A stretch of 52,887 nucleotides of DNA, the filler included, from Sphacelaria rigidula (taxonomy: Eukaryota): NCBI GenBank assembly GCA_964200075.2. It is 3 parts of 3 records of this genome, joined end to end, with 100 filler letters (N's around TTAATTAATTAA, not from the genome) between each part and the next. Parts side by side here need not be neighbours in the genome. Positions count along the whole stretch, not along the records: positions 35,329 to 52,887 come from CAXNAA020001044.1; 2 more parts are not named here. The stretch is one strand, 5' to 3'. Positions 8,031 through 52,887 of this stretch are shown piece after piece; position 1 is the first letter of the stretch, and each line of letters begins with the position of its first letter. The position numbers and the translations under genes are program-made. The notes under the pieces are model-generated. The model saw nothing but the letters and a program-made list of their open reading frames with translations, did no database searches and was not told where the DNA came from.

Positions 8031-9291
8031 GATTCTCGCCAGCGGTCGGTGGTACTTCGACGCCGTGGTAGAGTACAGCACTCCAGACGCTGAGTATAGA
8101 TCCGGTCGATTGATGCAGCGTGTGTTTAGCAGGGTTGACTTCGTTGTCGGTCGGTGTCCTCGTATCCTCAGGCGTCGGTGTAATTGATTGTCTTCTCCGA
8201 TGTCGGTGCTTGAGTACGACCACAGGTATCGATGGTAGACAGCTTCTCTTGTGTCACACGGAGGCGGGAGTGATGACGATGATGGTATTAGTATGCTGTG
8301 AGGGAGTGTTGACTGCGGACTGTGAGGGATGCGTGCGGCTGAGTGCGGGTTGCGGACCCCGGCAGTAGGTTACACTAGAGCAGATGCCACAACTCAAAAC
8401 GGCGTGCAGAATAATCAACCATGCTTGTACAATCGGTATTCAATGGGGCAAGTTCGGGCTCCTTCAAACCCGGGTCTAATTAGCTGTGTTGATTCGTATT
8501 CAGCCCCCACCACCGTTTCCACCGAATCAGCGCCACGGAGTGTGGGGCCCTAAACTTGGCGAGTTCATCGAAATTCCACGGTTGCGAGTTTGAAACACAG
8601 TGTATTTCAGTCCACGACCACCCCATACATTCGGCAGCTTTTGGGAGAGCTGACAGTCCCGAGTCCTGCAATCTTCCGCATCGCGCCCTTGGCCGAGGAC
8701 GCCGTATATAAACACTTCTACAGGTCATTCATCATGGCCGGCACGGGTCGTCCAATCCAGAATGCACCACGGTCGATATAACCAGAACGTTTCGTGAACG
8801 ATCTTCGTCGCACAGCACATCAGAAGGGTACATGCATTTGGAGTTTGAGCGAAACCAAACTTGCATAAAGGTGTGCTGTGGTATGATAGGTTGGTTCTAT
8901 GGTTGATGACTCCAAATAGATAGACCGTTACAGGACTAATTCAGGCGTTGTAACTCACTGTCGGGGTCCGCTGTGTTGCACCGCCCGGCGTCCGGCCGCC
9001 CACATCCCTCACTGTCCGCAGCCAACGCCATCTTTGCATCTTATCACCACCATCACTTGCTTGTACCGGCTGCATACAAGAGAGACAAGACTCACATCCC
9101 CGTCTATCATCGACACTTTTCGTCGCACTCATTCCCCAACACAACAAAGAAAAAGGCAAGTATTAATAGTACTGGCGACAGGATACGAGGGTGGACCGGT
9201 CGACAACGAAACCACCTGTCATAGGCGCCGAGTGAAATACTCCACTGCACCACAGCAAAGAAGTACGGGACGCCAGACGCCAGCGAGAATC

Positions 9292-11973
9292 ATGAAGATC
9301 AACGCTGTTTTCTTGGCCGCCACTGTCGCCGTCGTGGACGTCGGAGCAGCTCGAGGTGAAGTTCAGTTATTATTTCTATTCTACGCGTTCATTCGTCGGG
9401 AACAGGAACGGGATATTTGTGACTGTATTTTTGGTTGCAGACACCATGATGGAGGATAGCACAGGATATGCAGGATCATGATGAGTAGGGCGCGAGATCC
9501 ACAGGACATACATGGACGTCCAGATGAAGCAGAAAAGACCACGCGGCTCGTAAAGAATTTTGGTGGTCTTCTCTTGTGTCTAGAAGATGTGTGGTGGGCA
9601 CTTTCGCGAGTGCCGGCGAGCGTTGCTTGCGTAATACATGAGAAAATAATCAGTGCACCAGGGAGCAGCGCAGACAAGATTAGTAGATGCATCCCGTCGC
9701 ATGTGCGGAACATATCCCACATGAACCAACATGCGTTTTTTGACAGCACCAAATTTGTAATCTTCAGCTAGCTTGAGATGCACACCCATACGACGCCATC
9801 GTCCACCTCGACTTGTCCTATATCGATCGCGATGGCCATACCCGGGCTCAGTATTGTGCGACTTGTACAAGAGATGGTCTAGATCCTCGTCGATTTTCAA
9901 CAACACGAGGTCACGGTTTCAGTACTTTTCACGCACAACAGCGGACATTTGCCTCTCAAACCCCTCGCTTTGGAGGACCTACGTTGCATGGGCAGCGAAC
10001 TGAAGGACATGCATGCGACGCTTGTTCCGGCGCTATGTATCCGTCCCGTCCCAATCGCCCATGGCGGTACCGCTCTTGAGACCACCACGGCAACCACAAG
10101 GTGTTGGGTTCCACAAGCTACGACCACGAAAATAGAAATCGTTCCTTCATGCGATACGAATTGTCCGCGTTGAATGACAAAGCGAGGTGTTTCTCTAGTT
10201 TAGGGGTTCCCCGTCCATGTTGACGATCTCCCTTGCGTTCGTGCGCGAATCGTTTCTCTTCGCACTGTTGCTGCCACACTCCCCCAACACCCAATCAGGT
10301 CTCAAAACCCACGGCATACTGCAACTCCATAGGCTGTCCCAACACGTACGTGCCGATCGCCGAAGCGCACACGGTCGAGTGCGTGGGCGGTGAGTGCAAG
10401 GTGGAGCAGTGCTGTTCGTTGTTTTGCTCGAGCTTCGGGTGTGCAGCCGGCACCAATCCTATCCCCTACGCCGACACGACCTCGTGCGAGAACGGCGTCT
10501 GCACGCAGGAAGCGTGCTGCGATGCTGGTGAGTGGAAGTGGAGAGATACTCCGGACTACGATGACGTGTGACAAACCTTTCCCTACCACGTGATCCTTCC
10601 ATCGCATATCTAAATCTGTCTAGTAGATAACAGCTGAATATCCACGTACCACTGAAGCCGTGCTATTTGGTTGAAGCACATGTAAACTATCTGGTTGAGC
10701 CACGTGAAGGTACAGCCTTTCCGAACGTACACGCATAGATGGGCCTGCGGTGATCGAACTGATTCATCCTGAAATCGGAGTAGGGGGTTCGATTCTCAGC
10801 CGCCTTTAATTCGTTCTCGCCTCTTTTTTCTCAGGACCATTTGGTTTCGATCGTTGATAGCGTGCGGATATGAATACGGCGATAGAGTGCTCATCTAGTC
10901 GGGGGCACTCTGCCTAAATATCAGGCATGTACCGGCGGAGACATGGGTTGATTTCTTCGACACTCTGATCTTGTCCCGAGGAGGGAGACGGGTCGTCATT
11001 TTGACGAAACGACTTCATGCTGTCGTGCCGAGCGACCGGTGCCAACAATTGAGTAGGTCGGCCATGGAGCGTCAGTTTTCGCCCCATCTACTGTAGTAGT
11101 AAGAAGGAGGAGGACGGTACCACGACTATGATCAGGGTGTCCAGAGTATCGGCGCCGGAAATATCACTGAGTATCCCGCACGGCGTTTGGCATTGACTCA
11201 TCCCAAGTACGTGTCCTGGACCATCTCGGGTACTGTCTCATCATCCAAAGAAGCGAATATCCCAGCGTAGCTGGACTGATCACTGAAGGAAGATGTGAAG
11301 TATCGACACCCCAGGTTTTCCATTCTTGTCTAAACTCTACTCTGTCCGGCACAAATCAGGTGTTTCATAGACAGACAGGTTTCCGCCAACATGCAGCTCA
11401 GCAAACGCACGCGGAAAACAATACTTTCCTTCTCTTGTACTCGATAGCAGATAGCATTGTACGTCTCAGCATACATGCAGCGGCTGAATACACGCGATCA
11501 TCCCACTCTCCCCGCACGCTCCGCCGCGACGTATCTTCTCCTGTACAGACCAACCCCAAGCGCAACATGGCAGCTGTATGTCCTACGCGTGCCCGGCAGG
11601 CTTCGCCATCATAGACAATGCCGCGGACAAGGACTGCAAGCACGACTCCAACGACGAAACGGCACCGCCCGAGCCAGCCCCCGGGCCCGGATCCGATGGA
11701 GACGACATCTACTCCTACGGCTACGACGACGAGTCCTCTTCCTTCAAAGACTTCTTCGATGAAAACTTCCCTTATGACTTGTCGTATGACCTGTCGGACG
11801 ACTACGAGTGGGACTCTGATGACGTGGCCAGCAGCGGCGACGGGCGCCGCATGCTGAGGTCTCCTGTTGGTAGGGGGGCGGGAAGCACTTACAAGTTCGT
11901 GAGCTGGTGGGGCACGAGCTCGAGCGTGGAGGAAGCGTTGTGCAGTGTGGAGACATGTTGTCGCGAGGTCTAA
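9292..11973 (+). CDS. Secreted cysteine-rich repeat protein, copy B (inverted paralog of copy A, possibly pseudogenised at exon 2). Exons 9292-9355, decayed or tentative 9942-(9982 or 10100), 10299-10527, 11549-11973
   Basis: Exon 1 is MKINAVFLAATVAVVDVGAAR with donor GAG|GTGAAG. Exon 10299-10527 reads VSKPTAYCNSIGCPNTYVPIAEAHTVECVGGECKVEQCCSLFCSSFGCAAGTNPIPYADTTSCENGVCTQEACCDA. Exon 11549-11973 reads DQPQAQHGSCMSYACPAG...LCSVETCCREV*. These exons have canonical splice sites, but the middle exon has a stop and frameshift unless a weak GTTGCA donor at 9983 is used. Confidence 0.65.
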
Positions 11974-17564: not shown

Positions 17565-17664
17565 NNNNNNNNNNNNNNNNNNNNNNNNNNNNNNNNNNNN
17601 NNNNNNNNTTAATTAATTAANNNNNNNNNNNNNNNNNNNNNNNNNNNNNNNNNNNNNNNNNNNN
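17565..17664. other. Artificial contig linker or gap (N44-TTAATTAATTAA-N44)
   Basis: Exactly 100 nt with a central spacer that puts stops in all six frames; identical to the linker at 35229. Confidence 0.97.
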
Positions 17665-20871: not shown

Positions 20872-21754
20872 CACACGTCGGACAGATCAGCTCCCTATAG
20901 CTCGAGCTAGCTCTTTTTGAGCGTAGCTCCCTAGTGAGCTGCGAGAGCTAAATGAGCTGCACATGTTTGCCCTGGGTGAGCTACCAACCCTTGGCTCATC
21001 AGCTCATATTAGCCCTGGGTGAGCTTTGAGAGCTGCATGAGCTACGCATGTTTGCCCCCGATGAGCTATAAGAGATGCATGAGCTACACATGTTTGCCCT
21101 GGGTGAGCTATGAGAGATACATGAGCTACACATGTTTACCCTGGATGAGCTTTTGAGAGCTATGAGGGCAATGATTGCTCATCCGTTTGACCGCAAGGGT
21201 AGGAGGTTGGCGATCTGATAAATCAGCAGATTTCACTCTCTTCTTCGGGTGTGAGAATGCCACGATCCTGTGTCCCTGGGGTGAGCTACCGGGCGTAGCT
21301 CATCCGCTCATGTTTTTCCCGGGTGAGCTACAAGAGCTTCGTGAGCTACACATGTTTGCCTTGGGTGATGTATCGGGCGTAGCTCATCCGCATATGTTTT
21401 CCCTGGGTGAGCTGTGAGAGCTACATGAGCTGCACATGTTTGCCCTGGATGAGCTACCAACCCGTAGCTCATCAGCTCATATTTGTCCTGGGTGAGCTGT
21501 GGGAGCTGTATGAGCTACGCACATTTGCGATAGGTGAGCTACCAACCCGTAGCTCATCAGCTCATATTCGCCCTGGGTGGGCTAGGAGAGCTGCATGAGC
21601 TACGCATGTTCGCCCTGGGTGAGCTACCGACTCGTAGCTCATCAACGCAAGTTTACCTTGTGTTGAGCTACCAGACGTAGCTCACATGTACATGTTTGAC
21701 TGCGAGTGAGCTACCACCCGCTGATGAGCTAGCTCATGATCTGTCCTACGTGTG
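20872..21754. mobile_element. Non-autonomous TIR element filled with GAGCT/TGAGCTAC degenerate repeats, hAT-like 8-bp TSD
   Basis: TIRs are CACACGTCGGACAGATC (20872-20888) and GATCTGTCCTACGTGTG (21738-21754), a 16/17 match. Flanks AAATGTTC and AAATATTC match 7/8. The interior has many copies of CATGTTTGCCCTGGGTGAGCT...GAGCTACA. Confidence 0.8.
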
Positions 21755-35228: not shown

Positions 35229-35328
35229 NNNNNNNNNNNNNNNNNNNNNNNNNNNNNNNNNNNNNNNNNNNNTTAATTAATTAANNNNNNNNNNNNNNNN
35301 NNNNNNNNNNNNNNNNNNNNNNNNNNNN
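35229..35328. other. Artificial contig linker or gap (N44-TTAATTAATTAA-N44)
   Basis: Same 100-nt structure as at 17565. Confidence 0.97.
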
Positions 35329-37894
35329 TACCCATCCAAAATGGGGTCCCCCCCCCTACCCCCCCCACCCGTCGCCCAGAATGAGATTTTCGGGAATTTG
35401 GGGCGGTGAATAGCGTATTCCAGTCTGTACGGCCCCTTGGTCCATGCAATGCGTTTCCGGATCTGAGATCCCCCGATCTGCGTACAGATCCGTTTTTTCG
35501 ACAGCCATACAAACTGGTCCAATATATTGATTTTAGTATGGAAACTTATGTGCGCCATATCTCGGGATAGATGAGGAATGAGGTAAAGATGAGGGTATGT
35601 ATCGTCTCCCCTTGCTGCAGAGAATGTCCACACCAAAATTCGTCGTCATCCGCTGAATGCGTCGATCGAGGGTTTCATATAAATTTTAGTATGGACGACC
35701 ATTTCCGTTAGGTATAGGAATTGCTAGACATGGGGTTTAGTCAACGAGAAAATATGGACCCAAACTTATGAGCAGATGAGCACCTTCTCCTTGGGTAGAC
35801 GATTAATACGACATACGGATCATGGCCCAACTCGTGTGTGTCGATGAGATATTGCTTCAAGAGCTTAAATCCGGTTTTAGGCTGGCCCAGCTCGTACCAA
35901 GAACCCTTTGCTGCTCCTGACCGCGGGCTAGATTGTTGCAATCAGCTAATGTGAGATAATCGGTCAATCAGTCAATCAACCCAACAGACGATAAATATTC
36001 CGCGCCCAACGAAAACTAGCCGCCTGCTCTATTCTTCTCCGCCACAAGGTCCCTTTCGAAGTTGAGCGCTCCCATCTGTCCTCACCAGCATCCATTGACA
36101 AACCAACCGCCCATCCTCTCCGGTGTCCATGATCCCCAAACAGTGCCCCCTCTGCTTCATTTCGAGATAAAACCCTTCCTCCTTCGTTACGCACTCTGGT
36201 TCTGGTCTGTCGAAAGTTTCTCGTCCAGGAGGCTCAACCAGACCTAAACCGTCCGTTGACGACCGCTCCTCCTTCATCCTCGTCGCCGAAACCAGTCAAC
36301 ACACCAGCCCACGCTCCTTTTGTATTAAGGGTGTGCGTTCCAGCTTTCCACAGCGGTGTCAACTGCCTCCACACACACACCGAATCCCAACATGCCCGCA
36401 CTCAGGGTGCTGACATATTATACTGCTGCATTGGAACTGGGGTATGCCTAATGAGCACCGCGCTGACCCAACTCTACCACCACACCATGGCCTTGGCCAA
36501 CGGTGATAGTGAGAAGGAATTACTCGCTGAAGGTGATTCGGGTCCTACACCCGCCGAAAAGACCCTCCCCACGTCGTAACGACGAGACAGGTCATGGCCT
36601 TCGTTGGAGGACGGGGAACGGAGACAAGGAATATTATTCGTGTGCCCGGAAAAACGCCGGCATAAGATTGATCTGGGATGTAACAATCAGCATAAAATAG
36701 GGTCAACCACTGTACTATATTGTGGAAGGCATTTGATGATGACAGAATTTCGAACCTTGTCCGTAAACTAACCTGTAATTTATTCGCGTGTTCGAAATTT
36801 CGAAATTCGGATGTTTATCGTCAGCGCTTCATTCATCGTTCTCAAGATTTTTTTTTGTGATATCTCCGGTGAACACAAGTAACGGCACGCAATAGATTAT
36901 CCGTCACAAAAATAGCTTGCGCGGAGGAGGCGAGACGCTGGTCGTTTGGTATCAGCTTGGTTGGCAGATACTTCCTGTGAAAGCTTCACCTTTACCCATG
37001 TTTCCCAGTATATGCATACGAGACATGGAAAAACAGGTCATCCCCTCTGCTGTCAACATTTATTGTATATCAGGGGCGACCATGCCTCTCCCCTTTTCCC
37101 TCCCGCTGCGGAGTGACTATGCTCCTATTATTACTCATCTGCGGCCTTCGTTTGATGATCTCCTACATTTCCGCCCAAGCCTTCCAAAGATTCCGTTTTT
37201 GAATTCATATACAAATCGTATCTGCGGGCAAATAATTGATGTACAAGAGAACACGACAAAACATTTTACACTCCCATGCATTATTTTCCTCCAAGAGCGT
37301 TGAGTTGTCACCGGCTCGCTGCTCTTGCTCGAAAGACCGTGAAGTGTAATCGTAATTTCTGTGCGCATCTACGAATCCATCTCAGCAAACGCTTCACGCT
37401 GCAATCATTGCAACATCGCAGTGCCATAAAGGAGAAAAGTCTTGACCTCTGGCGACGCGACACTAACCGTAAATATTTTAGGATTTCAAAGTCCACTAAG
37501 GTCTCGGCATTTGCGGACAAACAACCATCATGTCCGGAGCCTCTCACGTATTGCATGGAACTTTCGAATTTGCGTTGTTTTCCCCCCGACAACTAACTTC
37601 TCTGCTCACTAGATTCACGGTTGAACGAAGATTGCTAGTGTCTAAGCCTGAGTTTTCCCCTGAGCGAAATCCCACCCAACGCAGGCCGAGAGAACCTCCG
37701 GCTGAAAGGGTACATATATCCAGCCAGCCTCCTGCAAAAGTATCACACCTTGGACAATAAATGATCAACAGATGCAATAGACAAGAAACGTACTGCATAA
37801 AGTACAGGACCATTGCGATTATTGTCGGCCGGCAATTGTTGCTATAGGCCTATACTTTATGCAGTACACTTCTCGCCTATTGCGTCCATTGACC

Positions 37895-37895
<1 letters not shown>

Positions 37896-37920
<25 letters not shown>
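37896..37920. repeat. (TA)n microsatellite upstream of the DUF2064-like gene
   Basis: About 12 AT/TA units. Confidence 0.9.
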
Positions 37921-37925
<5 letters not shown>

Positions 37926-38455
37926 CCAGGGTGTGAAAAGTAGACATAACAAAGTCAAAACGCGAAGCACGCTGGGCGCCCTTGGGACTTTTATATCTAC
38001 TACTGGACCCCCTTGAAGATTCGAATATGACCACCAAATCTACATTTGATAAAACCAGGAAGTTTTACCCATGGATTTCCGAAGCCAATCTAGGAGCATC
38101 TGGTAAAGTTTGACCTACAATAAGCAACCATTGCTTGTTCTTATTTTTTCACCTAACATGCTTTGAATAATTGTCATGCGTCAGATGAGGCCTTGCTCCA
38201 CGAAAAAATTGCCCCAAGAAACATCAGAATTCACGCTCTTACAACTGCATGTGTTTGGACTCGACCCACCAGGTGCAAAGCCCTAGCAGCATACCACTCG
38301 ACAGCCACTACCACGACGCCTCAGCCGCAACAACAAAGCACACGGCGCGCTTACTCCCAGTAATATCTCCTCCTCTTTCTTTGAAGGCGTCATCTCGGCA
38401 GCCCCCCATGCCCTGCTTAATTGTCGAGCAAACCCCAGCGCCGGTGTCGTTCAGC

Positions 38456-41400
38456 ATGACCTGCCCCACTCGCCACGAGAAGAATACCTCTGCTGCACTG
38501 ACTACTGTGACTGGCGGAGCAGGCACCCCGCCAGAAGGTAGCGCGAGTGGAAGGCGACCCACTCTAGTATTAGGTACGCATGGATTTTCTGCGCACGACG
38601 GACGCACTGGGGATATGTTGTGTATGTGTGTGCCATCTCCGGTGTGCGTTTTTCAGTTTTTGGAGTATTGAAAATTATGGCAAACGAACGTGTCCCTTGG
38701 CCTTGGGAGAGGTGCAGAAAGACCAGCGAAATTTTATGTTGTTTTCGTTGTTCATCAAAACATACTCAAGGGTGTCATCGTGTTCTAGGCCGCGCTGTCT
38801 CCGTCAGACATCGGCCACGGCTGAAAGCTGTTGTACAAGCTGTACTGCCAGCACCAAAAGCTGTACTGCCAGCACCAAAGGTGTTCGACATCTTGCGCTG
38901 TCGTTTGTTGATGCTTTGTACGTGAGTGGTGACAAAAAAAATTCAATTCAGCATTTCGCGTGAAGCGGCTCCTGCCACGTGATCCTGTTCCGCCCCCTGG
39001 TAACCCTATCTCCGTCTATTTCCCGGCAGTCTCCAAGTATCCCACTCCTGGGTCCAGCAAAACACGGCTTATCCCGGCATTTGGAAAGATGCTGGCTGCC
39101 AGGCTTGCCATGGCCATGCTCAAAGACTTACTCGCGCGATTCGCTGAAGAGGTGAGATGACCCTGGTGTCCAGGAAGGGGTTGTAAGAAATTCATCCCTC
39201 TCTTGCAGTCAGTCTTGGTCTGTTCGTTTTTACAAGTGGACGGTGTTCATGTATAACAGGTGCGGACCGAACAGGGCACCAAACTTTTTGTATGTAGAGC
39301 TGCATCATGGAAGAACCATGGTGGAGTAGCTGTTTTTACAACTTATTTGCTGTGTACTGTGCTGTCGTCTATTTTGGCCACGCGTACATGACTCAAGCGT
39401 ACTGCTGCACATGAAGATGGCACCTGAAACCCATATGAGCGCCCGCCCTAATCGCCAGTTGGTGATGCGTGACCTGTAGTCCCACCCTGACAAATGGTAC
39501 GCCTCTCCCTTTCGACGGTTCATGGTAGATCTTCCTATGAAGGTGCTTCTTCGTTATCAACAGAGCTCCATATTTTACTTTCACGCACACGTCGCAAGAC
39601 TTCTGCATTGCAAAGCTCTGTGTTTGACGGCCTTGCCTTCGATTCTACGATATCTGTGGCGCCCGTGGTGGGTAGAGGTGGAGAGACGGGGAGCGAAGGG
39701 CCCATTCCGACCGGAACTGACTCTCGGAACAGCAAGATCAAACATTGGAGAAAACCCTGTGTGGTGACTCTTTATATCAGTACACACTGCACTAAAGTGC
39801 GCACAGTACAGTCTATTTTTAACTGTTCCGTGCTTGCATTTGTCGCCTGTACAACTACGGGTATTGTGGCTCAATCAAGAACAAATATCTGGCAGCGAGT
39901 AGCATGGCTGGTGGGTGATGACCTCTCTGCTGAGTTCGCCGCCGCGTAGCTTGGGAGGGTATATGCTGTTTTCATTGCTGCAGCTTTGCGGCCGTTACGA
40001 TACCAGGCCGTGCTGCCCTGCAGGAAGAGCCGCTCAACAGTACTGTACTGTCAACGATAGTTGTTCGTCAATGCCTTACCTGGGGTAAGAGCGAATCTGA
40101 AACCAGTCGTTGAATCTGTTCAGTATCATGTGGCCCACGCACGTTCCGCGTTCATGATCCAAAATGAAAAAAAGCGCTTGCCAGTGAACTCGTCCAAGGG
40201 TTATTTTTCAAACTGCGCCTGTCACATCATGGTTCCCCCTCTTGTATATACCTCCGTGTTTCTGCAAGAGATCACTAGTTCCATGTCTCCCCTAACCTCC
40301 CGAACCTCACGTGTTCCCCAGCGATTGTACTTCTTCGTGATATACCTGGAAGAACGTTGTGGTCGTTGCAGCCACTGGCTAGTCGAACCATAGCCCTGGA
40401 TTGACTCCACACGAAGTTTTCTTCGTGGAACTGTCCCCATGTAAGTCCCTTGCGGCATAGTTGGCACAATTAGCAGCACCAAAGTCCAAACATCTTGCCC
40501 TTTCCCTACTGTTTGCTGTGAATGCCAGCTTTGTGCCCTCAGGGCTTTTGCCCCTGTGGCATGGTCGGTCATGATCTGGTGACGTAGCGTGAAGTGTGGG
40601 TGATGTCTCCAGGATTTTGAGTATGAGAAATACGTGAGTCCCTGCCAACCATGAGCCTGGGTCCGTTGACGATTCGGTGATTGCCTCCACCTGCTGAGGT
40701 TCAGCCCCTGATGACTGACGACTAGCTTTATGGATTTTTACTCGACTGACTGAAACACGCCCAACACAAAAACCCCATGGAAAAACTTGCTGTGTTGAAG
40801 AAGGCAAGTTTTCGCTCCAAACCCGAAACTTTCGCCACCCATCGAGTGTCCTTGCCCTCGGTGTTTGCCGTCTGGCTGTGTACGCGACCCAGTGCCAGTT
40901 TGGGTATATGAGCACACCAGTCGGGGTCACACGAGAAGGTCAACGAATTATTAGTCTGCGTTGTTTTTTCTTCTTTTCAACTCATGTTTGCTCTCGATAG
41001 CATAACGAGATGATGATATGACGGGAGGAACCACACAACCTTCTCTTGATTTCGAAGAAGACGTACGATATTCGTAGCCAGCGATCGCGTCTGTTGTTTA
41101 AAGGGGAAAAAAAAAACGGCGTTTGAATAGTTCGGTGACTACCTCACTTCCACTTCGGCCGTGTGCTGTGGATTATTTGACACTCTCACCCTAGGCAAGA
41201 GCTTTCTACAGTCAGTACTCGTATACAATTTAAAAAGCATGTACTGTGCACAGTATGGAAGCTATTGCCTTCCGTGACGTGCACAGTACTCGTACAAAAG
41301 TGGGGACTGTGCGCAGTATGACTTCAAGACAGGGTAAAAATCTCCACGCGGTATAAATTGTTACCCCCGGCTTGCGCCCCATAGCGGATGTGCTGCCATA

Positions 41401-44400
41401 CAGCTCCGCTCAAGATACAGGCAGGAATTATAGCGGAAGAGGCGACCTATTACCCTTGCGTGCGCCACCCAGGGCGAATGCACACTTGGCTGCAACACCG
41501 ACCGCTGTACAGCAATGACTCGAGTGCTCGCCCTATTCATTTGTTTCCACAACGAGCGATGACTCGAGTGCTCGCCCTATCCATTTTTTGCACAACGAGC
41601 AATGACTCGAGTGCTCGCCCTATTCATTTTTGGCACAACGAGTAATGACTCGAGTGCTTGCCCTGTTCATTTTTGTCCACAACGAGTAATGACTCGAGTG
41701 CTTGCTCTATTCATTTTTTGCACAACGCCCAGTACCAATGTACCGCGCAGATATCGGAACGGCTTTTAATGTGAAGACAACAACAACAACAACGAGTGCG
41801 AGTGCCACGAGTGACACTCGTGCTCGTCCGACGAATGCAGCGTTTAAACCCTTACACCGCGAGGTTAGTCTTCTGTTGAATCGGCACCAATTTCAAGCGA
41901 GAAAAGTATGCATGATCCAGAAAGACTAATCCCGTGGTCTAAGGACAAGTCACCACCCTACATCGATTTTTCTCGGCAAGATTACCGTCATTATCATCAG
42001 GCCACACTGCTGTCATTTGGTGATAGAAGATGACACTGAAAACTCATTCGAAAAAACTCCTGTGTATGTGACCCGCCTGGTGCGCGCCGCCCACATATAC
42101 CGGTCGAAAGGTGTAGACCGGCATCCAGGATAGATGGGACAACACACACACACACACACACACACACAGTGTGGCATTCTCAATGTTCCCCCGGCCATGG
42201 GCTTGACACCCATCCACCAGGGCAGGTCTGTACATACATGAGCTCCGTTTGCCCTGTGAAAGATATCGTCTGTGGATTGAGACTTGGAGACCTCAAAATT
42301 GCCGGCCACCGGTGAAGGTTTAACCCTTAGACCGCGAGATTAGTCTTTCTGGATCATGGATACTATTTTCCACTTGAAATTGATGCCGATTCAACAGAAG
42401 ACTAACTTCGCGGTCTAAGAGTTGAGTGCCATGGCTACCGTGACGCACACTGCAGTCTCTGTGTGTAAAGCCGAGAACTTGGCCTTACCTGTCGTCATCG
42501 TCCTCGAAGTGCGATCTATCCGAGGCCACTCACTCACTATTCCATCCCTCTGCACTGCTGTGGAGTCTCGATATACTTTCTCTCCCGGAAATTATTTGTT
42601 GGATGTTTCACCGCTCCTGCTTTGCAGTGTTGATACACCTTCACTTGGGAAGAAACTGCAGTTTAATATCATGGACGTGTTTTTCAAGAGTGCTGAACGC
42701 GCTCACTCGCTTCCAGTGTCACAGCAGTGATGTGAATTCACCTGTCTAAGGCTGATCTAGTGGCTTGCCATAACAGTCAGCGACCCGCCCGAATCACCAG
42801 GAGTAAAGTCAAAACAAGTCGCATCCCTAAAATATCTTGTTCATTTTTAGGTCGGTTTTCTTCCAATAGAATGAACGGGCCCAGCCATCTACAGCATGTA
42901 GTCCTGCATACCCAAAAAACCCTATGACAAACGACAAAGCAGCCTGACTCCCATATCGTTTTATAAAGAGTGCATGGGCCGGAGTGCAGGTCGCCAGGGT
43001 ATATCCGTTCAGCCTGAGATGTAGGACACGGCTGCTCGCTGCCGGGTGCGTGCCCGCGCTGCGTGGCAGGTGCCATCTGAGTACACAATCCAGCGCCCTG
43101 TGTGACGTATCAAGTTTAGTGCATTACAGACGTGACGAGCTCTGTCTGTAGTCAAGTTTCTACCCCCCTTGCCGGCACAAATGGTTGATCAATCGACATT
43201 GGGTAATAGACGAACGGGCCATGAGACCGTCGTGGTGGACACCTGTTGAATCGGCATCAATTTCGCATACAAAATCACTCACGACCCATACGACCACGCC
43301 TCGGAGGTCCGAGGATGGATCATGATGTACATCTTCCGTTCATTTTTGGAGGAACGTCATGATCATTCAACAGATGACCCACCCTGGCTGTCGCGCGGCT
43401 ATCGCGCTTATCGGGAAGCAGCCCATCTTACTCACTGGAGGTACTCGTATCTCTAAGTTGAAAATTCTCGACATGTTCAACAGTATATTTGTTGCTGTAC
43501 TGTTGGACATGTTGGGAACCTCACCTCTTGAATACCTTTTGACATAGTGGGGTTCCTGGGTCGTGTGACGAACTTGCTCCCGCAGATGAGAAACATGGAT
43601 CAGCATCGGTTGAGGAGGTTACACTACCATCCGCGAAAAATATAGCACCTTTCGGGAGCCCGCAGCCGTCGCGCACAACAGCGCATCCGGAACCTAGGAC
43701 ACTGGTGTACTGACTTTGTAGCCCATCTGCCCCCCTTCACATGGATCGTACTGGTACCTCATATTTCAGTTCTTGAGTTTACTCGAGGCAGTATAGGGTA
43801 AGCCATAAATTCGCGACCTTTTCCCCCAACAGTCCTGCGAAGACGTCTGCTGCTATTTTACCGGGTGGGTTCTCTCATCCTGTGGGTGAGAAATCACGAT
43901 AAAAGAAAACAAGAGATGGTGATTTCTTCAGGGCTCTGGGGGTAACTATAAGTGAAATGAAATATGTTCGCGCGTATGGCCGAGCGTTGTTTGAAAACCA
44001 TCACTCGCCAAGAATCGAGGACCCACCCGAAATCAGGGGAACAACTATCGCATGGGACATGTCTTGTATCTCAACTGTGCCGCAGCACAAACACACTCAT
44101 GCTCTCGTCTCATGTGCCATGGCTGTCGCTGCGCTATCGTGTCTTCAGGTCTTTGTGAAGACGGTTAAGTCCGCTGGGACTGCCTGAGTTGCTTTGTTGT
44201 CAGTGCGTTCGTCTCACTCAAGAATGATGTTCTCGGCACGCAGTGCTCTCCACACAGTGTTCAAACACTCATGGTGTGTTGGCTGTTCCCAAACTCATCA
44301 TCTCTATGCTACAGTTGTTGGTGTGCTGCTGTGTATCTTGACACTATGACAATCATGGTGCGATGTGCGTTGGAGGGTGCCTGACCAGTCGCTGCTGCTG

Positions 44401-47400
44401 CATGACGTGTTTCGGTCTGCACTGAATCGCGGTAGGATCGAAGAGCTATCCAACCAAACGTAAAAGCTATTTTCACGTTACAGCTGTACAGCTGTCTGTT
44501 GCGTCTTCGCTGGTACTTCAGTTATAGCCGGGTGCTGCGACCGGGGAAAATACGCACGGCGGATGCGTGCAGGTTGGGGCCAACAAACTGTGCTAGCACG
44601 GAGCTGCTGTATCCTTGATTGATGGTGACAGCTGTCTGTCTCGCAGCGGCGCAATATGTGGGCCAATCAAGGCTACTTTTCGACTCATATTCCACTCGTT
44701 TTTCTCCTCTGATTCAAGAAAGGTCGCCGCACTTTCGTCTATTCAAAGACTCTGGTCGAAAAACCTTTCCACTTATGATTCTTGCCCCTATCTGTGAGCC
44801 CAGTGCCAAAAGCTGGGTGCATCGAAAGCTCTCGTAGAACGGTAGTACCCGGAAAACATGTCGAGAAATCCATCAGTTTGACGCGAAAAATGGCTTGAGG
44901 GGCAGTATCCCCTTCTACGGTACAGGGAACGGGATACAACACGGTCCATCCTGTCGTGGGAGAGGGGGTTGCTGCCACTCACTGCTGTAGTCGTTCCAAC
45001 AACTTGCGTACTGTGAGGACTGACTGGTGCGGGCTGAATGTTCCTGGACAATGTTGAACGCCCAATGTAGCTGAAGTTCAACCTTCAACATCGAGGACAC
45101 CGTCAAGCAATGATTGTGGGGTCTCTGGAAGATAATTATTGCCCCGAGCTTCGTTCTCCAAATCGTGAAACGACCCTGTGAATGACATTCACATACGCGC
45201 ATGTGTTGAAAATAGCTAAATCCCTATCCTAACCCCAACCAGAAGTATACCGAGAATCGTCGAGGGTTGTTTGGAGAGTGCTGAAGGCAGGGTGTGCCTT
45301 GGCAGTCCTCTGATGGGCGGCGCCGTGGTATACACGTCCAGCCTCTGTAAAGATCCGATTGTCGACGTAAGGGCCGTGTCTTCACTGCTCGGATTTTTGG
45401 GGGGTTGTACTCGTATATTCCACTTTCAGGACATTTTGCGTCGCCCCACTGAGAGTCTAGCCCACGTTCCGATTCGCTTGACTCCGAGGTATCGAGAACG
45501 GTCTCTGAACAAAAGTACGGCTAGAAAATAAAATGCGGTGTCTGCAGGTACTTCCCCCCGAACCGGAGCGCAGACTTGAGAATATCGCCCGTAAATTGAA
45601 GGTCCCGATTCAAGCTCCCTCCATCTGAGCCATATTCGGGGCCACAATACGGCGTTTCCTGATGCGAGCTCCCCTGATGTGCGGGCAGATACGAGATTGC
45701 TGACCGCCGTAATGATAATTCTAACAAGACAACGAGACACGCCCTGTGAGTGTCCTTCTCTTGAACCGAATCTCATATCAACCATCGTGGAGAAGACCTC
45801 TGACCTCCTGGAACCGAAGCTGATTGTATGCACGCCGACCAAAATGATCTGGTTCCAGGTTTCATCGTGCCATGCGTCAGGCGACTGTCATTGATGATGG
45901 TCCGTGTACAAGACGTGGCCTCTGTTTGCCGGATCGTTATTGAGAATGATACTTGGTATCCAGGTAGTGCTGTCCTCGGACTTTTCGCAATTGACATTGC
46001 ATGGATATCATCGACCGTATCCGTCAATCGAATCTGTTGCCCCCTCACCAATTCAGTTCGCGTCCACCCTTTTTTTTCTTCTATTTCTGTTTCCATGAAA
46101 AATTGCAGGATTCAACGAGGGTATTTCGAAAGGTGTTCGTGTACGCTCCTGCTTCTGCTGGCCCGGCGGTTGCTGCAATGCTGAAGGTAATCATGAACCG
46201 AGAAAATAAACGGCACCATCGTGTGTGTGTTTTACTTCGAGGTAACGACGAAAAGTGATACCCTGGAGGGTGGAAAATAGCGACGAAACAGCCACGCGTG
46301 TCTTGTTACAACTTAACCGTTGTGACTCAGCCGCGTGGTCATCCTTCACAGTGATTAGAGTCGACATGGTCACGGCTTGAGAGCACAGCATCAGTGGCAA
46401 AGGGAGTGGGAGGACATGGGCCGACCTGTCCTCAGCGTATGACATTGGTCGGTTGGCGGCAGGGATAAGAAAAATGCGCCATGTAAAATACCGTCATCCG
46501 AGGAGTAGGTCTCATCGGAATCCACGTACGTCAGTCGTAGGTGCGCCATAGTCAAAGCTTCATCTTTATACTTTTCCCCTGTTTTCTATGCAATGCAACG
46601 TATAGTCCATTACGCACTCCCCTCCCCCAGTTCCCCCTTCCCCCCAGATGTGGGGGTGCATCCACATCGTGCGAACACCTGCTGGAGGAGGAGCCGGTTT
46701 CATACTATTCTGCCCGCCCTGCCTCCCTTCGGATGTACTGTGCCCTTCGATCCTCTTACTCAGAACCTGAAGCTGGACAAGGTGTGGGAGGCGGAGCCGG
46801 TTGTGATGGGCACGGCGTTACGGGAAAGCGGACTGACGAACATTTTGGAGTCGGCGCTGGCAAACGCGAGATCAACCGAGAGGTGAGAAGTTATGTGGTT
46901 CTCGTGTGTTTTCGTCCCCTGCAGTCGCTGGTGTGTGTCGGTGAAAACTGTGAGGTTTTAGCGCTCCATAAAGATTCTGCGCTTTGCTTGCTGACGGCAC
47001 GCATGAATCAAAATTGGATGCTGGGCAAGCGTTGCAGAGGGCGCTGGTTGCACTAGACCTCGATCCGTAGGGCTGAAATGGTATGTCGATAGTTGACGCG
47101 GTCACCATTGTTGTGAAGATGGATGGCCCTTGCTTGGCACCAAGTAGCGTAATGGGACGTTACATTCAAGATCGTGACTTCATGAGTTTTTTTTTTCAGG
47201 GCTGTGGGACGAGCGTTGTCTCAAACGCCCGTTCGCGCTAGTGTTGATGTAGTTACAGCCCTCTGTATCGAATGTTGCGGGTTGTCGTGCTCTTTTTGCA
47301 AATAGTGATGGCGGGTCGGTTCAGTCCCTGGAGGATTGCCGAGACTATATTTGGAATCATCTGCTTCGGGTGTGTGTAGGATGTGGAACATTTGAATCGG

Positions 47401-48503
47401 CCGGCTTTACCCTCGTCGCGTTCGATCGTCTTTGAATCCTTTTTCGTGTCGAGTTCCCACCTGATGCGTTTTTTCATTTTTGCGTAGGTGGATGAAAGCT
47501 CCCTTGCTTCATCTGAATGTTCCCCTGACTCTACTTACAAAACGCTTGGCACCGGTGAATCCCTCCCCGCCCTCTCCATACGATGCAGGGATGGGGCAGT
47601 TGTTTTCGTGGGGATGGATACGCCGGAGTTACCATGGTCGGAAGTGATGGCGGCGAAAAACGCGGCCGAGATGGAGAACAACGCGTACATCTGCCCAGGT
47701 TAGTGAAGCAAAAACAAGGCTTGGTCGCTATCATTGCTGCTCGTCGTCGTAGATCTACACTCTTGGGGAAGCGATGTCTCCTGTAGACCGTGTGTAGAGC
47801 GCGGGTTACACGGCGACATCACATGCATTGAAAACTCGCTCCTTTCACGAGGCCTGGGATGAGATCACCAAAGTCGTGTACACGAGCATTTGTGCAGAGT
47901 TTTCATCCTCGAGTCCCTTTGAATGTACACCTTTTGCCTATATGCGACGGCGTCGGGGGTGAGTACGTGTTTGTCAGGGTGCGTTTATAAAACAGGGTCG
48001 CTTCAGAACAGGTACACCTTCGTCATGAAACAGCGTGAGATGTCGTAATAAAGTCATGGTTCTGAACGGAGCAGCGGGAAGGGACCGGGGGTCGGCAGTC
48101 GCCTCATCGTAAGCAAGTACTGTCCTCGAGAGCTCTCTATCACTTGCCCCAATAGATGCAGCTGCAAAATTTGAGTGTCCACTTTCTGACGTACGGCCCT
48201 CGTGCGCCCTGTCCTCTCTTCCTACTTGACTTAACCGCATCCCTAGCGTCGGACGGAGGCTACACACTACTAGGGCTGCCATCAACAGCACGAGAGGGTT
48301 CGTTCGAAGGCGTCTTGTGGTCCGATCCAAGGACTTGCGCCAGCCAAGCCATGGTGCTTTCCTCGAAGCAGGTGCCGACGCGATATGGGGGAACCTATCA
48401 CGATGTGGACGAGGCGGATGATGTGGCTGCGCTGGTGCGCCGGGCTCCAGCCGGTCTGGCCGATGTGAGAGAATGTCCTGCCGCGAAGAACGTGTGTAAA
48501 TGA
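38456..48503 (+). CDS. DUF2064 / TIGR04282-family protein (CofC-like GT-A fold transferase), ~267 aa. Exons 38456-38573, 39030-39151, 46109-46186, 46764-46882, 47589-47698, 48247-48503
   Basis: All introns are GT-AG and the phases close (804 nt). The spliced product has the family motifs in order: LVLVSKYPTPGSSKTRLIPAFG, VFVYAP, AVVFVGMDTPEL, ICPASDGGYTLLGL, FEGVLWS and YHDVDE. An alternative in-frame ATG lies at 38408. The family was recognised by motif recall, not by a search. Confidence 0.85.
41515..41727. repeat. Tandem array of ~5 units of 43-44 bp
   Basis: Unit ATGACTCGAGTGCTCGCCCTATTCATTTTTTGCACAACGAG(C/T)(A/G) is repeated head-to-tail with no unique spacers. Confidence 0.9.
41847..41944. 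mobile_element. ~100-bp piggyBac-like mini-MITE, copy 1
   Basis: It has its own TIRs, CCCTTACACCGCGAGGTTAGTCTT ... AAGACTAATCCCGTGGTCTAAGG, is preceded by TTTAAA, and is the reverse complement of copy 2. Confidence 0.6.
42142..42168. repeat. (CA)n microsatellite
   Basis: About 13 CA units. Confidence 0.9.
42320..42425. mobile_element. ~100-bp piggyBac-like mini-MITE, copy 2 (inverted relative to copy 1)
   Basis: TTAA|CCCTTAGACCGCGAGATTAGTCTT ... AAGACTAACTTCGCGGTCTAAGAG|TTGA: ~24-bp TIRs, a CCC start and a TTAA-like target site. Confidence 0.65.
44500..46030 (+). mobile_element. Highly degenerate Ty1/Copia pol relic (integrase to RT start) inside intron 2 of the DUF2064-like gene
   Basis: Frameshifted echoes of Copia motifs in the expected order: VRTD (~45015), NIE.P.K..WG..KII.A..FV (~45085-45155; compare LNMETPYK.LYG...LKIIGARAFV) and ASVCRI..RMILGI...QL (~45920-45995; compare FAPVCR..SIRMVLAIA...QLD). 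Confidence 0.5.
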
Positions 48504-48709
48504 GTGAGCGTTGCTTCACGGGTATTGATGCTCTTGGCCTTGGGTGCCACTACTCATGTCGCTCAAATTTGTGAAGGGGAAGAATGAACATATTATTGTA
48601 CTCGTACCTCATCCCTGTCGACCGCTGTGCTGTTTTAATCCGGTTGCTTTTCCGTTGTGGATCAACAGTCGCCGTGCCCGCAAACATTGGGGTTGCTGAG
48701 GACAGCGAT

Positions 48710-48712
48710 CCA

Positions 48713-48745
<33 letters not shown>
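48710..48745. repeat. (CAG)n trinucleotide repeat downstream of the DUF2064-like stop codon
   Basis: CAGCAACAG followed by about 9 CAG units. Confidence 0.9.
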
Positions 48746-48748
<3 letters not shown>

Positions 48749-51700
48749 ACAACGTCGAGCCTGCTTATGGTAAAGGCGGCCTCCCAAAGTCGATGGCTCC
48801 GCTAAGAGCGCTCGTTCAACCGGTGGTTGAGAAGAATTCTGCGCCCGGTGGCAGCGATGTTCTTTTTGGCTGTACTGTGCCTCTTTCTGGGAGTTACCGT
48901 AAATCCACTTTCCTGTCCGGCAGGTAGCGGGGAGGGAGAACCGACGGGTGGTCGTCACTGAGTCAGCCGCCACGTGTGTCGAGACGAGAATTGGGAGCAG
49001 GTGATCCCGCCAGCTTCCATCCATTGCCGACGTTGACAGCGGAAAGTGAGCAGAAGGGAAAGGTTACCATGGCGGGTGAATATTGTGCCCCGCTGTGATG
49101 TCGGCGCCAGAGCTTGGCCTCCTACGGTGCTCCGTTTCTTGGTTCTTCGTGTCTTCCCCCCCCCCGACCCACCCCCCTTTCCCCCGTCATTCCCTTTGCC
49201 GCTGTGCGCTTCTTGGTCATGCGTTACAAGCCTGCAGTACTTTGTCACTGAAGCGCCGCATGGATAACCGTTTGTATCTCACGTATGAACGTCTCTTCTA
49301 GTGAAATATTTTTTCATGTGCACTTTGGCATCTCCCATCACTTCAACATCCCGATCTACGACCGTCGTTTCTGATTCTCGAGGGGGGAGAAAAGAGAAGG
49401 CAAATCGAGTTTTCGTAACTTTCATGTATGGCAGTGAAATTCGTGTGTTATGCCCTTGCCGTTTGGTATACCTGTCTCTTCAGCTGCAGCTATAAATAGT
49501 AGGAGAGACCCTGTCGGACATGGTAAAAATGTGTGTTGGCGAATCGAAAAACGGGAGCTGGAGAGGGGGAAGTAGTGTCGGCACGTGGCTATTTGGGAGG
49601 GTGGAATAGGAAGTGTACCGGGCGTTTTTTCCTGTGAACTATGTTGTTTCGAAACTTTCGTCTTGGCGGTAGCGCTCCGAGGGTGTATACACCCTTTGCT
49701 TTTTTTTTTCTTCGGAGAAGTGGAAGACGCCCCTGTATTTTCATGGTGGTACGTACTCGCGAGTTCTGGACGTTCTGTGTTGATGTTGAAGCGTCGCACG
49801 ACGATTGAGGGGAAAAAAATGAGCAAATAATGTACACAGGGTTTTTTCGAGAGTGTGCGATACGTGGTACGTGGTACGTGATACGTGATTCGTGGGGAGG
49901 AAAACTGGAAAGACAAGCACAGAAACAGAAGAGTCTTTATTATTATATTTTTCCTTCTTTTTCTTGCTCTGCTTTTTTCCTTTCCTCCAGCATTGTTGTT
50001 GTGTGAGGGACCGTTAGGTGGTCCACCGACCAATATTTGTAGCCACAGATGACCTTCGGAGCGTCGTTCGTGACTTAAGCGGTTGGAGTCAGTATTTCCC
50101 GCTGGGCCATCCTTTTCCCGAAGGCGGGCAGGAGTCAGTAGTGGCCCTCTCTGGCCTCGAGTGATTCTTGGCGTTGTTTGTTGTTTTCGGACTATTCACT
50201 TTCTTGTGTTGAAAATGTTTGCTCTACTTCGAAAAGTTTCAACTTTGTTGGGACGAACTGTTGATGTGAAAAAAAACGAGGAAAAAAATTGATGCTGTTT
50301 TTTTACATTCGTACCTCACATTTTTTCATTGTGAGCCTGAGGTAAATTATGTTACGCCTCTCTCGCATGCTCTTCCTACAACTGAAAATGCAAAACCCTT
50401 GTGGTGCCTTTTAAAATATCTTTTTTTTTCTCTTTTTTGGGATGTGGACCTGTGTGTTTTTTGTTTCTTGTTCTTTTAGCCTCTTGTGTATCCCGCGATG
50501 ATTCGCATTCGCAAACGCGAACTGTGCTTGTTTCACGTGTTTTTTGTTTTCCGAGTCTTTTTTTTTCCGTCTTGGTTCCTCGGTTTGTTCCACGTTTATT
50601 TGCTTCTTTTTCCCACCACTAGTCGCAGGAAGGAGATGGTGAACGGGTGCTGTGTTTTTATGATGTCCAAGGCGATTTGGTGCTCGTTCGTGTGCCCCTG
50701 TGTCATGTCTTTTTTCTTTTTTTCGAGGGGAAGATTGAAGATACTTGGCCTCTAGGTTGTTCTCGTGCTTACTATAAACCCGTTTACTGTGTCCAAAGCG
50801 AGTTGTGCTGTGTGGTCATTGGTGTTTGTATCGATGTGTGTCATAAGGGCGAGGAGGGGCGTTACGGGCGGCTAGTTACAGAGATGCTTCACGTGTAAAT
50901 GAACGGAGCTCGTGCGTTCGTTCCAGGAGCTCAAACGAGAACGGGCTAGTCGGGTGGTGAATTGGGAGAGCCACAGCCAGGAGCGTGGCGACCTTTTCCC
51001 ACCTCCCACCACTCAGTCCCGTCGGTCACCCGTCGGAGGTGAAGTTTATTGCATATTAGCTTCGTTTATCGGATGTTACGCATTTCTTCGGGGCAGATGT
51101 TGACCTGAAACGGTCCAGATTGCACAGTGTAGAGTATTAGCGCAAGTTGTCATTTCTCTCGGTAGGTGTAGGTTGCCACGCTTTTGTCCATAGGAGCGAT
51201 AGGGGTGGGTGGGTGAGGGAGAGGGAGAGGGAGGAGAAATATGAATGATCCTGGGAGTTTTAGGTTCATTGGGTCGTATATCGAGACGGATAAGATGAGT
51301 CGACCACCACGAGAAGAGGTTGCATGCGAGCGTACGTGTTGTTACTCGCATGCATTCACGCATGCTCGGGTCTCGAAGTCGTGTTGTTTGTACGGTTTTC
51401 CTGTTTTCAATTGTAATTTATCCGTGACGTGATGAGGTAGGTTGGATCGAAGGTACGAGTAAAGATGCCTGGGTAACAAGGAGCCAGGCACTCCTTGATC
51501 AAGGACAAATCTGCCCACTCACGCGCGTACACCTCGGTGTATGTCTTGGTTACTGTATGATCAATAGTTCCATCTGAAGAATTTGTGTCCTTCTATTGCG
51601 TGGGAGAGTCTGCATACTAGGTCTTGATTTGCTAGGGAGCATCACAGATCGCAACAGACTTGATCGTGACTTCGCTAGAGGAGAGTAGACAGATTGAATA

Positions 51701-52887
51701 CGTATCACTTTTTTTGTCCCCGTGCAGTCACTCACTAGTGATCGCTAGACTGCCTAGAGAGCACTACACCAACCCCACCGGTGAACATCCGCGGGTAGAA
51801 GAGTCGAGGTCCATTCGAGAGCAAGATCTATGGACACGAGGGAGGCACCCTTACTGGTGCGTCACGCAGGCCGACCTACATCTTTACCCCAACAAAATGC
51901 ACTCGGTCGCTCGCTATCGAAGGATGAACAGTGGCTGGTGGTGGTGTTGAGAAGGCGACGAAATGAGAATTCAAGAACTAGAAAAATGGACGGCAAGGCC
52001 GCAGGGCGATTGATTCAGGTGTTAGGTTTCTATTCGGTCTCGCTATGTGGTGAGCGATGTGTGTATCGCACGATTCCCAGGGATGGCGTTGGTTGTTTCG
52101 TGTTTTATTTGATACGTGTGTGTGTGTCTCGTGTTGGTTTTTGTGGGGATTTTAATTCGGACAACGTCAGACACTTGTCCGCAGAATGTTTCGAAAGCGC
52201 CGAGTGCGCGAAGGAGAGGGATCTTTGTCTAGGAACATGCGATCCTGAAAAATGGGAACGAGACTTTCTCGTGGAAATGAACACAAGTCTAAATTGTGTA
52301 CGATATTGAACCTGGTACCCGCTAAGCGTCCCGTGAAGTATCAGGAACAATTTCGACCTTGATTCGTTCCCACAAAAGAGAGTAACTCTAAGGTTTCAGG
52401 ATTCCCCATTTGGGGATAGTAGCAAGGCTGAGCCCCGTAAGGGAGGCACACGAATGGATGGCTTCGCCACATCGAACGGTGTACGTTCGGGTGTCTCGCT
52501 TCTGTTTCCCCCTTCTTTGTGCTGCGTGCTTTTCTCAGCTTTGATACGATTTCCACCGGTATACATGTGTTTTTGTACAGTATATGTGCATGTCGCCTTC
52601 TTCTGTGTTGCCGTTTGAAATTGACACCTTGGTAGACATCTCACACATTCGAGGGGGAAAGTAAAAGGGAGGGTTCTTTTTTTATGTCATTTTTTTGTTG
52701 AACTGGTCAACGACGGTGAAATGTTTCCCTCCTTTTTTTTTTTTCCTTTAGCACGTGCTTGTTACTAGCAGGCCTGATCGCGGCTGGAAAAAGGAGAAGG
52801 GGGGGGGGGGGGGGTGGGGGGTTTTTTGGGGTGGTATAATGGTGTGGAACGTTTTTTTTTTTTTTGTTAGTTGGAAAAAAGGAGTGG

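Follow-up and report, generated by a model that had tools for sequence, protein, structure and literature searches.

A window of 52,887 nt from the brown alga Sphacelaria rigidula (GenBank assembly GCA_964200075.2; the window is the whole stretch of DNA analysed, filler included) carries a gene of the DUF2064 family that is real, spliced and transcribed. The gene has seven exons and a 289 amino acid (aa) product. On its sequence it falls into a eukaryote-type clade of DUF2064 that has no name yet, within a family of enzymes that is itself uncharacterised. Structural modelling indicates that the encoded enzyme most likely joins a nucleoside triphosphate (NTP) to a phosphate ester, and nucleotidyl transfer is predicted as its reaction with good confidence. 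A 5-substituted ribose-1-phosphate is the probable substrate, a prediction made with less assurance. It is tentatively proposed that the protein is a Mg-dependent nucleotidyltransferase of the CofC/FbiD type that turns 5-dimethylarsinoyl-ribose-1-phosphate into a nucleoside diphosphate (NDP)-sugar for the glycosyltransferase TIGR04283. It is in this sense that we infer a role of the gene in arsenosugar synthesis.

Gene model and transcripts

The window consists of three contigs of ~17.5 kb joined by N-linkers at positions 17565-17664 and 35229-35328. Because the linkers join unrelated contigs, the order of genes across them is artificial, and the true neighbourhood of the gene is 35329-52887 only. 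This region is the third contig (G000:C1044), on which the gene is located. The gene is already represented in public databases by a partial 'unnamed protein product', P0009, which is labelled Sphacelaria rigidula and equals residues 1-231 of the spliced product at 100% identity.

Public sequencing runs, X1, X2 and X4 from one study and X5, were aligned to the gene contig as assembled contigs. None is recorded as RNA, and X1, X2 and X4 were taken to be RNA from their spliced contigs and a tool's guess. The earlier note on this DNA had proposed six exons with GT-AG introns encoding 267 aa. The junctions of its five GT..AG introns (456, 6957, 577, 706 and 548 nt) were all present in 3/3 RNA-type runs and in 0/1 run with unspliced contigs that cross the introns (X5), and the 267-codon frame is open. 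However, a further joint, 48464 -> 48669, was found in X1, X2 and X4 and was absent from X5, and represents a sixth GT..AG intron that had been missed together with exon 7. Since the segment 48465-48668 is spliced out in the RNA-type runs, the protein has 289 aa and a different C-terminus, and the last 12 codons of the 267-codon frame are read-through into intron 6. The corrected C-terminus aligns with the brown-algal homologues P0002, P0007 and P0011. Splicing in the RNA-type contigs also bears out the view that this is a true nuclear gene. Contamination was ruled out, as the gene is spliced and nested among brown-algal orthologues.

All parts of the gene are on the + strand. With 38205, 38214 and 38290 as the first positions of the RNA-type contigs, a 5′ transcribed leader (38205..38455) is defined, and its two in-frame ATGs (38249 and 38408) could add an N-terminal extension of 69 aa or 16 aa. 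The deposited model of P0009 takes 38249 as its start, and the homologue P0002 begins at the position matching 38456. Because both upstream in-frame ATGs lie in the transcribed stretch, the start codon is unsettled between 38249, 38408 and 38456. Exon 1 (38456..38573), taken as coding from the ATG that matches the P0002 start, is supported by splicing and by this homologue. Exon 2 (39030..39151) includes the K-x-P-x-x-G and KTRL motifs with K42 and matches TIGR04282 with an E value of 8.3e-7. Exons 3 (46109..46186) and 4 (46764..46882) are bounded by junctions seen in RNA-type contigs. Exon 5 (47589..47698) contains the G-x-D-x-P motif with D156 (codon 47617-47619), and exon 6 (48247..48464) contains DGGY (D185) and DVD (D235, D237) and matches TIGR04282 with an E value of 1.3e-7. 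The motifs quoted in the earlier note stand in the open frame of the spliced product. Intron 6 (48465..48668; 204 nt, GT..AG) is followed by the coding part of exon 7 (48669..48773), where a CAG repeat encodes polyglutamine and the stop codon TAA is at 48771-48773.

Downstream of the gene, each of the 3 RNA-type runs has an unspliced contig of ~4 kb, and 0/4 long frames in 48774..52744 match Pfam. This region (+ strand) is probably a long 3′ untranslated region; the assembly is interrupted at the CAG repeat and a single transcript is not spanned. The 6957 nt intron 2 (39152..46108) contains repeats of high copy number. It also holds a 43-bp tandem array of 5 copies at 41511-41727, within a stretch where depth is very high in each of the four runs.

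Family membership and relatives

Proteins were scored against Pfam DUF2064 (PF09837; gathering cut-off 25.8 bits), TIGR04282 (134 bits) and TIGR03552, the CofC model (105 bits). The DUF2064 cut-off was passed by P0009 (46.0 bits) and by 4/4 other brown-algal proteins (42.9-46.7 bits), whereas that of TIGR04282 was missed by 5/5, with 77.6 bits for the partial P0009 and 85.0-91.8 bits for the four homologues. All of the K-P-G, KTRL, GxDxP, DGGY and DVD motifs of TIGR04282 are nonetheless present, and the model was covered over 1-189 of 189 positions in 4/5 proteins. Hence the previous assignment to DUF2064 holds and that to TIGR04282 does not; judged from its sequence the protein is a DUF2064 member that is TIGR04282-like and lies outside TIGR04282 by the curated test. 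The TIGR03552 cut-off was also missed (30.5-35.9 bits in 5/5 proteins). In a Pfam scan of single exons, DUF2064 was matched by exons 5 and 6 only, below cut-off. TIGR04282 is titled 'arsenosugar biosynthesis glycosyltransferase' in NCBIfam, with the type 'hypoth_equivalog' and the short name glyco_like_cofC. The algal proteins differ from it in scoring 42-56 bits under its cut-off and in forming part of a separate eukaryote-type clade, and the S. rigidula gene differs in having six introns and no operon.

Among the matches listed, papers that mention DUF2064 or TIGR04282 concern bacteria or soil metagenomes, as judged from titles and the starts of abstracts. In the literature covered, which leaves most subscription journals outside, no reaction was found assigned to DUF2064/TIGR04282 and no description of a eukaryotic branch, and a prior assignment is possible.

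A profile made from seven eukaryote-type sequences recovered 180 clusters (50% identity) at E ≤1e-30. The best 150 of the 180 were used, and with five brown-algal rows added and P0250 removed for short coverage gave 154 tree rows, of which 153 fall into a single clade that excludes the 99 prokaryotic or CofC-like rows (FastTree support 97). In a 70-row IQ-TREE analysis, all 29 eukaryote-type rows fell together with a support of 99 in the Shimodaira-Hasegawa-like approximate likelihood ratio test (SH-aLRT). As it was picked with an algal profile, the clade set is biased toward clustering. Labelled members are brown algae, Tribonema, Pelagophyceae sp. CCMP2097, Coccidioides and transcriptome entries of eukaryote collections; most of the 30 relatives looked up bear no organism label, and 'eukaryote-type' is demonstrated for few rows. 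The Coccidioides row groups with another (support 96) whose gene identifier we take to be from Corallochytrium.

These trees contain no identified cyanobacterial sequence and did not resolve the sister group of the eukaryote-type clade. The idea that a mainly prokaryotic gene was taken up by this lineage is not supported: at least 150 clusters (50% identity) have their best score with the algal profile, and 153/154 rows, drawn from these clusters and the brown-algal proteins, group separately from the prokaryotic rows sampled. A transfer specific to brown algae was ruled out, since the clade includes Tribonema, a pelagophyte and Coccidioides, and because it holds stramenopiles together with a fungus, an old eukaryotic gene fits better than a brown-algal import. 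In searches of other collections, the ESM Atlas gave no DUF2064 clusters other than bacterial ones, which was uninformative on the range of the family, and none of 20 pattern matches on viral contigs encodes a DUF2064 relative. Plasmid records with a TIGR04282-like match were mainly from Burkholderia (49/55), mostly B. glumae among those listed.

Predicted fold and metal site

Structure was predicted for the full-length homologue P0002, which is 74% identical to the spliced product (mean predicted local distance difference test score, pLDDT, 89.2). The best match of this model was 3CGX (Z 26.6, root mean square deviation 2.2, 224 aligned), a solved DUF2064/TIGR04282 member from Desulfovibrio without known function, which shares the family motifs and has the PDB title putative nucleotide-diphospho-sugar transferase. 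The next matches were structures of CofC/FbiD guanylyltransferases (Z 18.5-21.4), including 2I5E (Z 21.4), 7P97 (Z 19.6) and 6BWH (Z 18.6), in agreement with the CofC-like fold suggested earlier. IspD, TarI and GlmU followed (Z 13-16), and 50/50 rows shown in the search were of nucleotidyltransferase type by title. The database name 'glycosyltransferase' is doubted because the structural neighbours are nucleotidyltransferases.

In FbiD, D116, D188 and D190 bind two Mg ions that hold the substrate phosphate (PMC6450877; PMC8764529). In a profile alignment of the GxD and DVD motifs, these residues correspond to D156, D235 and D237 of the algal protein, the FbiD numbers having been matched after hand-derived tag offsets, and the three aspartates are invariant in 44/44 sequences of alignment A4. 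K42 appears, by eye, to occupy the motif position of FbiD K17. The algal protein therefore resembles CofC/FbiD (TIGR03552; 6BWH, 7P97, 2I5E) in fold and in the three-aspartate, two-metal site, but identity is 16-21% and it carries the PA-x-DGGY segment of DUF2064. Unlike CofC/FbiD of F420 synthesis, DUF2064 proteins have TIGR04283 and ribose-processing enzymes as partners. GlmU, RmlA, IspD and TarI share the superfamily fold and the proposed reaction type, but are only ~8-16% identical and their substrate assignment is not transferable.

Partner genes in the S. rigidula genome

TIGR04167 (ArsS) matched seven exon-sized stretches on two contigs of the same genome. The ArsS gene model has 11 exons with AG/GT ends, a frame open to the stop codon, a CxxxCxxC motif and a Cys-rich C-terminus, and its 5′ end is missing; the public ArsS piece P0039 scores 341.9 bits against the TIGR04167 cut-off of 300. 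Contig C3186 contains the 3′ exons of a TIGR04283-like gene (L018:1838-1931, 3255-3380 and 9359-9539, G000:C3186; approximate coordinates), and the splice phases of these exons are compatible. These exons were found with eukaryote-type queries (best E value 2.4e-4 over 2922 frames). The 5′ exons were not found, and the TIGR04283 model itself had no match in the genome. The last exon is present twice, 6 kb apart, with both copies phase-compatible, indicating alternative ends or a tandem copy. A match on C15222 in the same search contained 2 stops and was judged to be chance. Both partner genes are on contigs other than that of the DUF2064 gene. Exons of methylthioribose kinase are also present, which would also be expected from methionine salvage.

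Ectocarpus, Pylaiella and Ascophyllum are brown-algal genera that appear both in the labels of ArsS relatives and in those of DUF2064 relatives. A description of algal ArsS was not found in the literature covered, which excludes most subscription journals. Relatives of ArsS were also seen in bivalves, starfish, a sponge and an annelid (P0058, P0059, P0063, P0065, P0066, P0068, P0069, P0072, P0073, P0077, P0078 and P0094), and the two tested, from Mya and Sycon, score 414.8 and 409 bits, above the TIGR04167 cut-off. The N-termini of eukaryotic ArsS proteins (P0054, P0055, P0056, P0060, P0059 and P0077) are rich in Arg, Ser and Leu and poor in acidic residues. By eye they look like mitochondrial presequences, and none was seen on the algal DUF2064 proteins.

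Domain fusions and prokaryotic neighbourhoods

Among mostly long relatives scanned for fusions (30 with Pfam, 25 with NCBIfam), methylthioribose kinase is fused to DUF2064 in 4, with scores of 331 and 319 bits (cut-off 275) and two partial matches at 200 and 134 bits. Methylthioribose kinase phosphorylates C1 of a 5-substituted ribose, which is the substrate shape expected once adenine leaves 5′-deoxy-5′-dimethylarsinoyladenosine (DDMAA). A TIGR04283-like glycosyltransferase is fused in 2 relatives (155 bits, cut-off 182). On metagenome contig L066, interrupted segments of the kinase precede segments of DUF2064, all on the same strand. The MazG-like pyrophosphohydrolase fusions (P0168, P0173, P0210 and P0274) group together in the tree.

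ArsS is nearly always accompanied by DUF2064 and the reverse is not so. In a sample of 151 genomes from one phylum, 72 had both genes, 16 DUF2064 only, 2 ArsS only and 61 neither. Among 81 genomes from a second phylum, DUF2064 was found in 24 (4 of them weak matches that may be CofC), ArsS in 6 and both in 5. ArsS-positive genomes thus also had DUF2064 in 72/74 and 5/6 cases. Two of the DUF2064-only genomes in the second sample (G173 and G223) are unpublished.

Neighbourhoods were examined in 45 prokaryotic loci of 6-20 kb, comprising 8 earlier loci, 20/88 and 16/24 positives chosen for long contigs, and 1 metagenome locus; there was no random-locus control, and some panel queries were drawn from the 45 loci themselves. 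A TIGR04283-like gene was present in 24/45, and an MTAP-like phosphorylase in 10/45, ~6 of which are independent (four are syntenic relatives and two are sisters). The L030 locus brings together ArsM, DUF2064, TIGR04283, ArsS and a divergent phosphorylase, and in L023 a fused TIGR04283-DUF2064 pair adjoins an MTAP-like gene. The L060 locus (4288-10645) contains DUF547, a non-ArsS radical SAM enzyme, MTAP-like, MerA-like, TIGR04283 and DUF2064 genes. In two genomes that gave no ArsS match, DUF2064 and TIGR04283 have APH-family kinases close by (L039:9233-10288 and L047:12785-13825), which possibly stand in for the ribose kinase.

A possible arsenosugar route and its alternatives

In the literature on arsenosugar synthesis, as far as accessible, enzymes are assigned only up to DDMAA, and ArsS converts dimethylarsenite to DDMAA (PMC13598754). 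In the proposed route, ArsM would supply dimethylarsenic and ArsS would form DDMAA. A phosphorylase of the 5′-methylthioadenosine (MTA) type, or a nucleosidase followed by methylthioribose kinase, would then remove adenine to leave 5-dimethylarsinoyl-ribose-1-phosphate. The DUF2064 enzyme would combine this with an NTP to give NDP-arsenoribose and pyrophosphate, and the TIGR04283 family-2 glycosyltransferase would move the ribose, with inversion, to glycerol-type acceptors, producing the seaweed β-ribosides. Glycosyltransferases of this family-2 (GT2) kind invert configuration. Nucleoside phosphorylases yield α-ribose-1-phosphate (PMC7226091) and arsenosugars are β-D-ribofuranosides (PMC10456119). 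The stereochemistry fits, as an α-linked NDP-ribose and an inverting transferase would give a β product. The ArsM-ArsS arsenosugar pathway of Synechocystis, reportedly the work of Xue et al. (2019) and Cheng et al. (2021), is similar in that the S. rigidula genome has an ArsS gene above cut-off, but here the genes are scattered, spliced and nuclear, and ArsM was not found.

Several observations weigh against this route. The nearest characterised relatives of the enzyme use three-carbon phospho-acids, not sugars. In the S. rigidula genome there were 0 matches to ArsM (NF008823, NF038099 and two bacterial proteins) and 0 candidates for a nucleosidase or phosphorylase (PF01048). These blanks weigh little, because the search with the TIGR04283 model missed the TIGR04283-like exons and is insensitive to short exons. 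The partner-gene search proposed in the earlier note was successful for ArsS and for the 3′ exons of the TIGR04283-like gene and gave no ArsM; AS3MT is listed for Ectocarpus siliculosus (PMC5398495). DUF2064 occurs without ArsS in 16/88 and 19/24 DUF2064-positive genomes, and 69/72 genomes with both genes belong to just two of the four interleaved handle series. The co-occurrence is hence largely lineage structure, and its Fisher p does not amount to independent evidence. ArsS is inside only 6/45 loci and ArsM in 3/45, and the kinase and MazG are in 0/45. Other fusion partners are mixed (MazG-like 4, AAA 3, ankyrin 2, flavoprotein 1 and RNA cyclase 1), and because unrelated domains are also fused to DUF2064, the fusion evidence is suggestive only. 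Of the four kinase fusions, one sits elsewhere in the tree and the other three cluster, so that these three may be one event; the kinase is also a housekeeping salvage enzyme. Finally, Coccidioides, a soil fungus, has a TIGR04283-DUF2064 fusion (P0303). The annotation of some strains splits this fusion into two neighbouring proteins (299 and 240 aa).

The same chemistry could be directed to a non-arsenic 5-modified ribose-1-phosphate, such as methylthioribose-1-phosphate, 5-deoxyribose-1-phosphate or similar, for another riboside, and arsenosugars would then be a by-product, or one among the uses of a wider module. The DUF2064-positive genomes without ArsS are consistent with this, as are the soil fungus in the clade and the L060 locus, where DUF2064, TIGR04283 and the MTAP-like gene accompany a radical SAM enzyme that, at 61 bits, falls well short of ArsS. 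That methylthio compounds are the native substrates of the kinase and phosphorylase partners also counts in its favour. However, ArsS without DUF2064 is rare (2/74 and 1/6), the S. rigidula genome keeps an ArsS gene above cut-off, and ArsS and DUF2064 relatives share the brown-algal genera in their labels; a non-arsenic substrate is rather unlikely.

Action on the acceptor or head-group side, by CofC/IspD/TarI-like activation of a small polyol or acid phosphate, is considered improbable. Examples would be glycerol phosphate or arsenoribosyl-glycerol phosphate, either of which would go into phosphate arsenosugar and arsenosugar phospholipids. The closest characterised folds do use three-carbon phospho-acids or polyol phosphates (PMC8764529), and both phosphate arsenosugars and arsenosugar phospholipids are algal products (PMC10456119; PMC11009773), but the TIGR04283 glycosyltransferase would be left without a known donor, and the ribose-kinase fusions and phosphorylase neighbours would be unexplained. 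The NCBIfam name of TIGR04282 and the PDB title of 3CGX would make the DUF2064 protein itself a glycosyltransferase that moves arsenoribose straight to the acceptor. This appears very improbable, given that TIGR04282 is typed 'hypoth_equivalog' and named glyco_like_cofC, that the structural neighbours are nucleotidyltransferases, and that a separate family-2 glycosyltransferase already adjoins or is fused to DUF2064.

If activation of arsenoribose by the DUF2064 enzyme is preferred, a wider scheme may be put forward, in which ArsS, adenine removal of the MTA-salvage type, DUF2064 as NDP-arsenoribose synthase and TIGR04283 as inverting ribosyltransferase would complete arsenosugar synthesis and be old in eukaryotes. 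Pieces of this four-step module were found in stramenopiles, a fungus and marine invertebrates, and the scheme as a whole is possible, if doubtful.

Other features of the window

On the middle contig, 42/85-bp tandem arrays were seen at 20934-21644. A TTAA-repeat spacer was seen within the second linker (35229-35328).

Implications

The family and a tentative arsenosugar link already exist in NCBIfam, and the gene alone is only moderately surprising. What has been gained is a corrected, transcript-supported algal gene with a testable reaction and substrate, key residues, and partner genes in the same genome. Arsenosugars are described as the main arsenic form in seaweed that people eat (PMC8787705). 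If the proposed reaction is true, the missing steps of their synthesis and a new nucleotide sugar would be named, and breeders of low-arsenic seaweed would gain markers. If the four-step module is true, an undescribed arsenic-containing nucleotide sugar would exist, and some animals and fungi would hold part of the route. Should the reading be wrong on arsenic, the gene would still represent an uncharacterised ribose-activation enzyme in several eukaryotic lineages.

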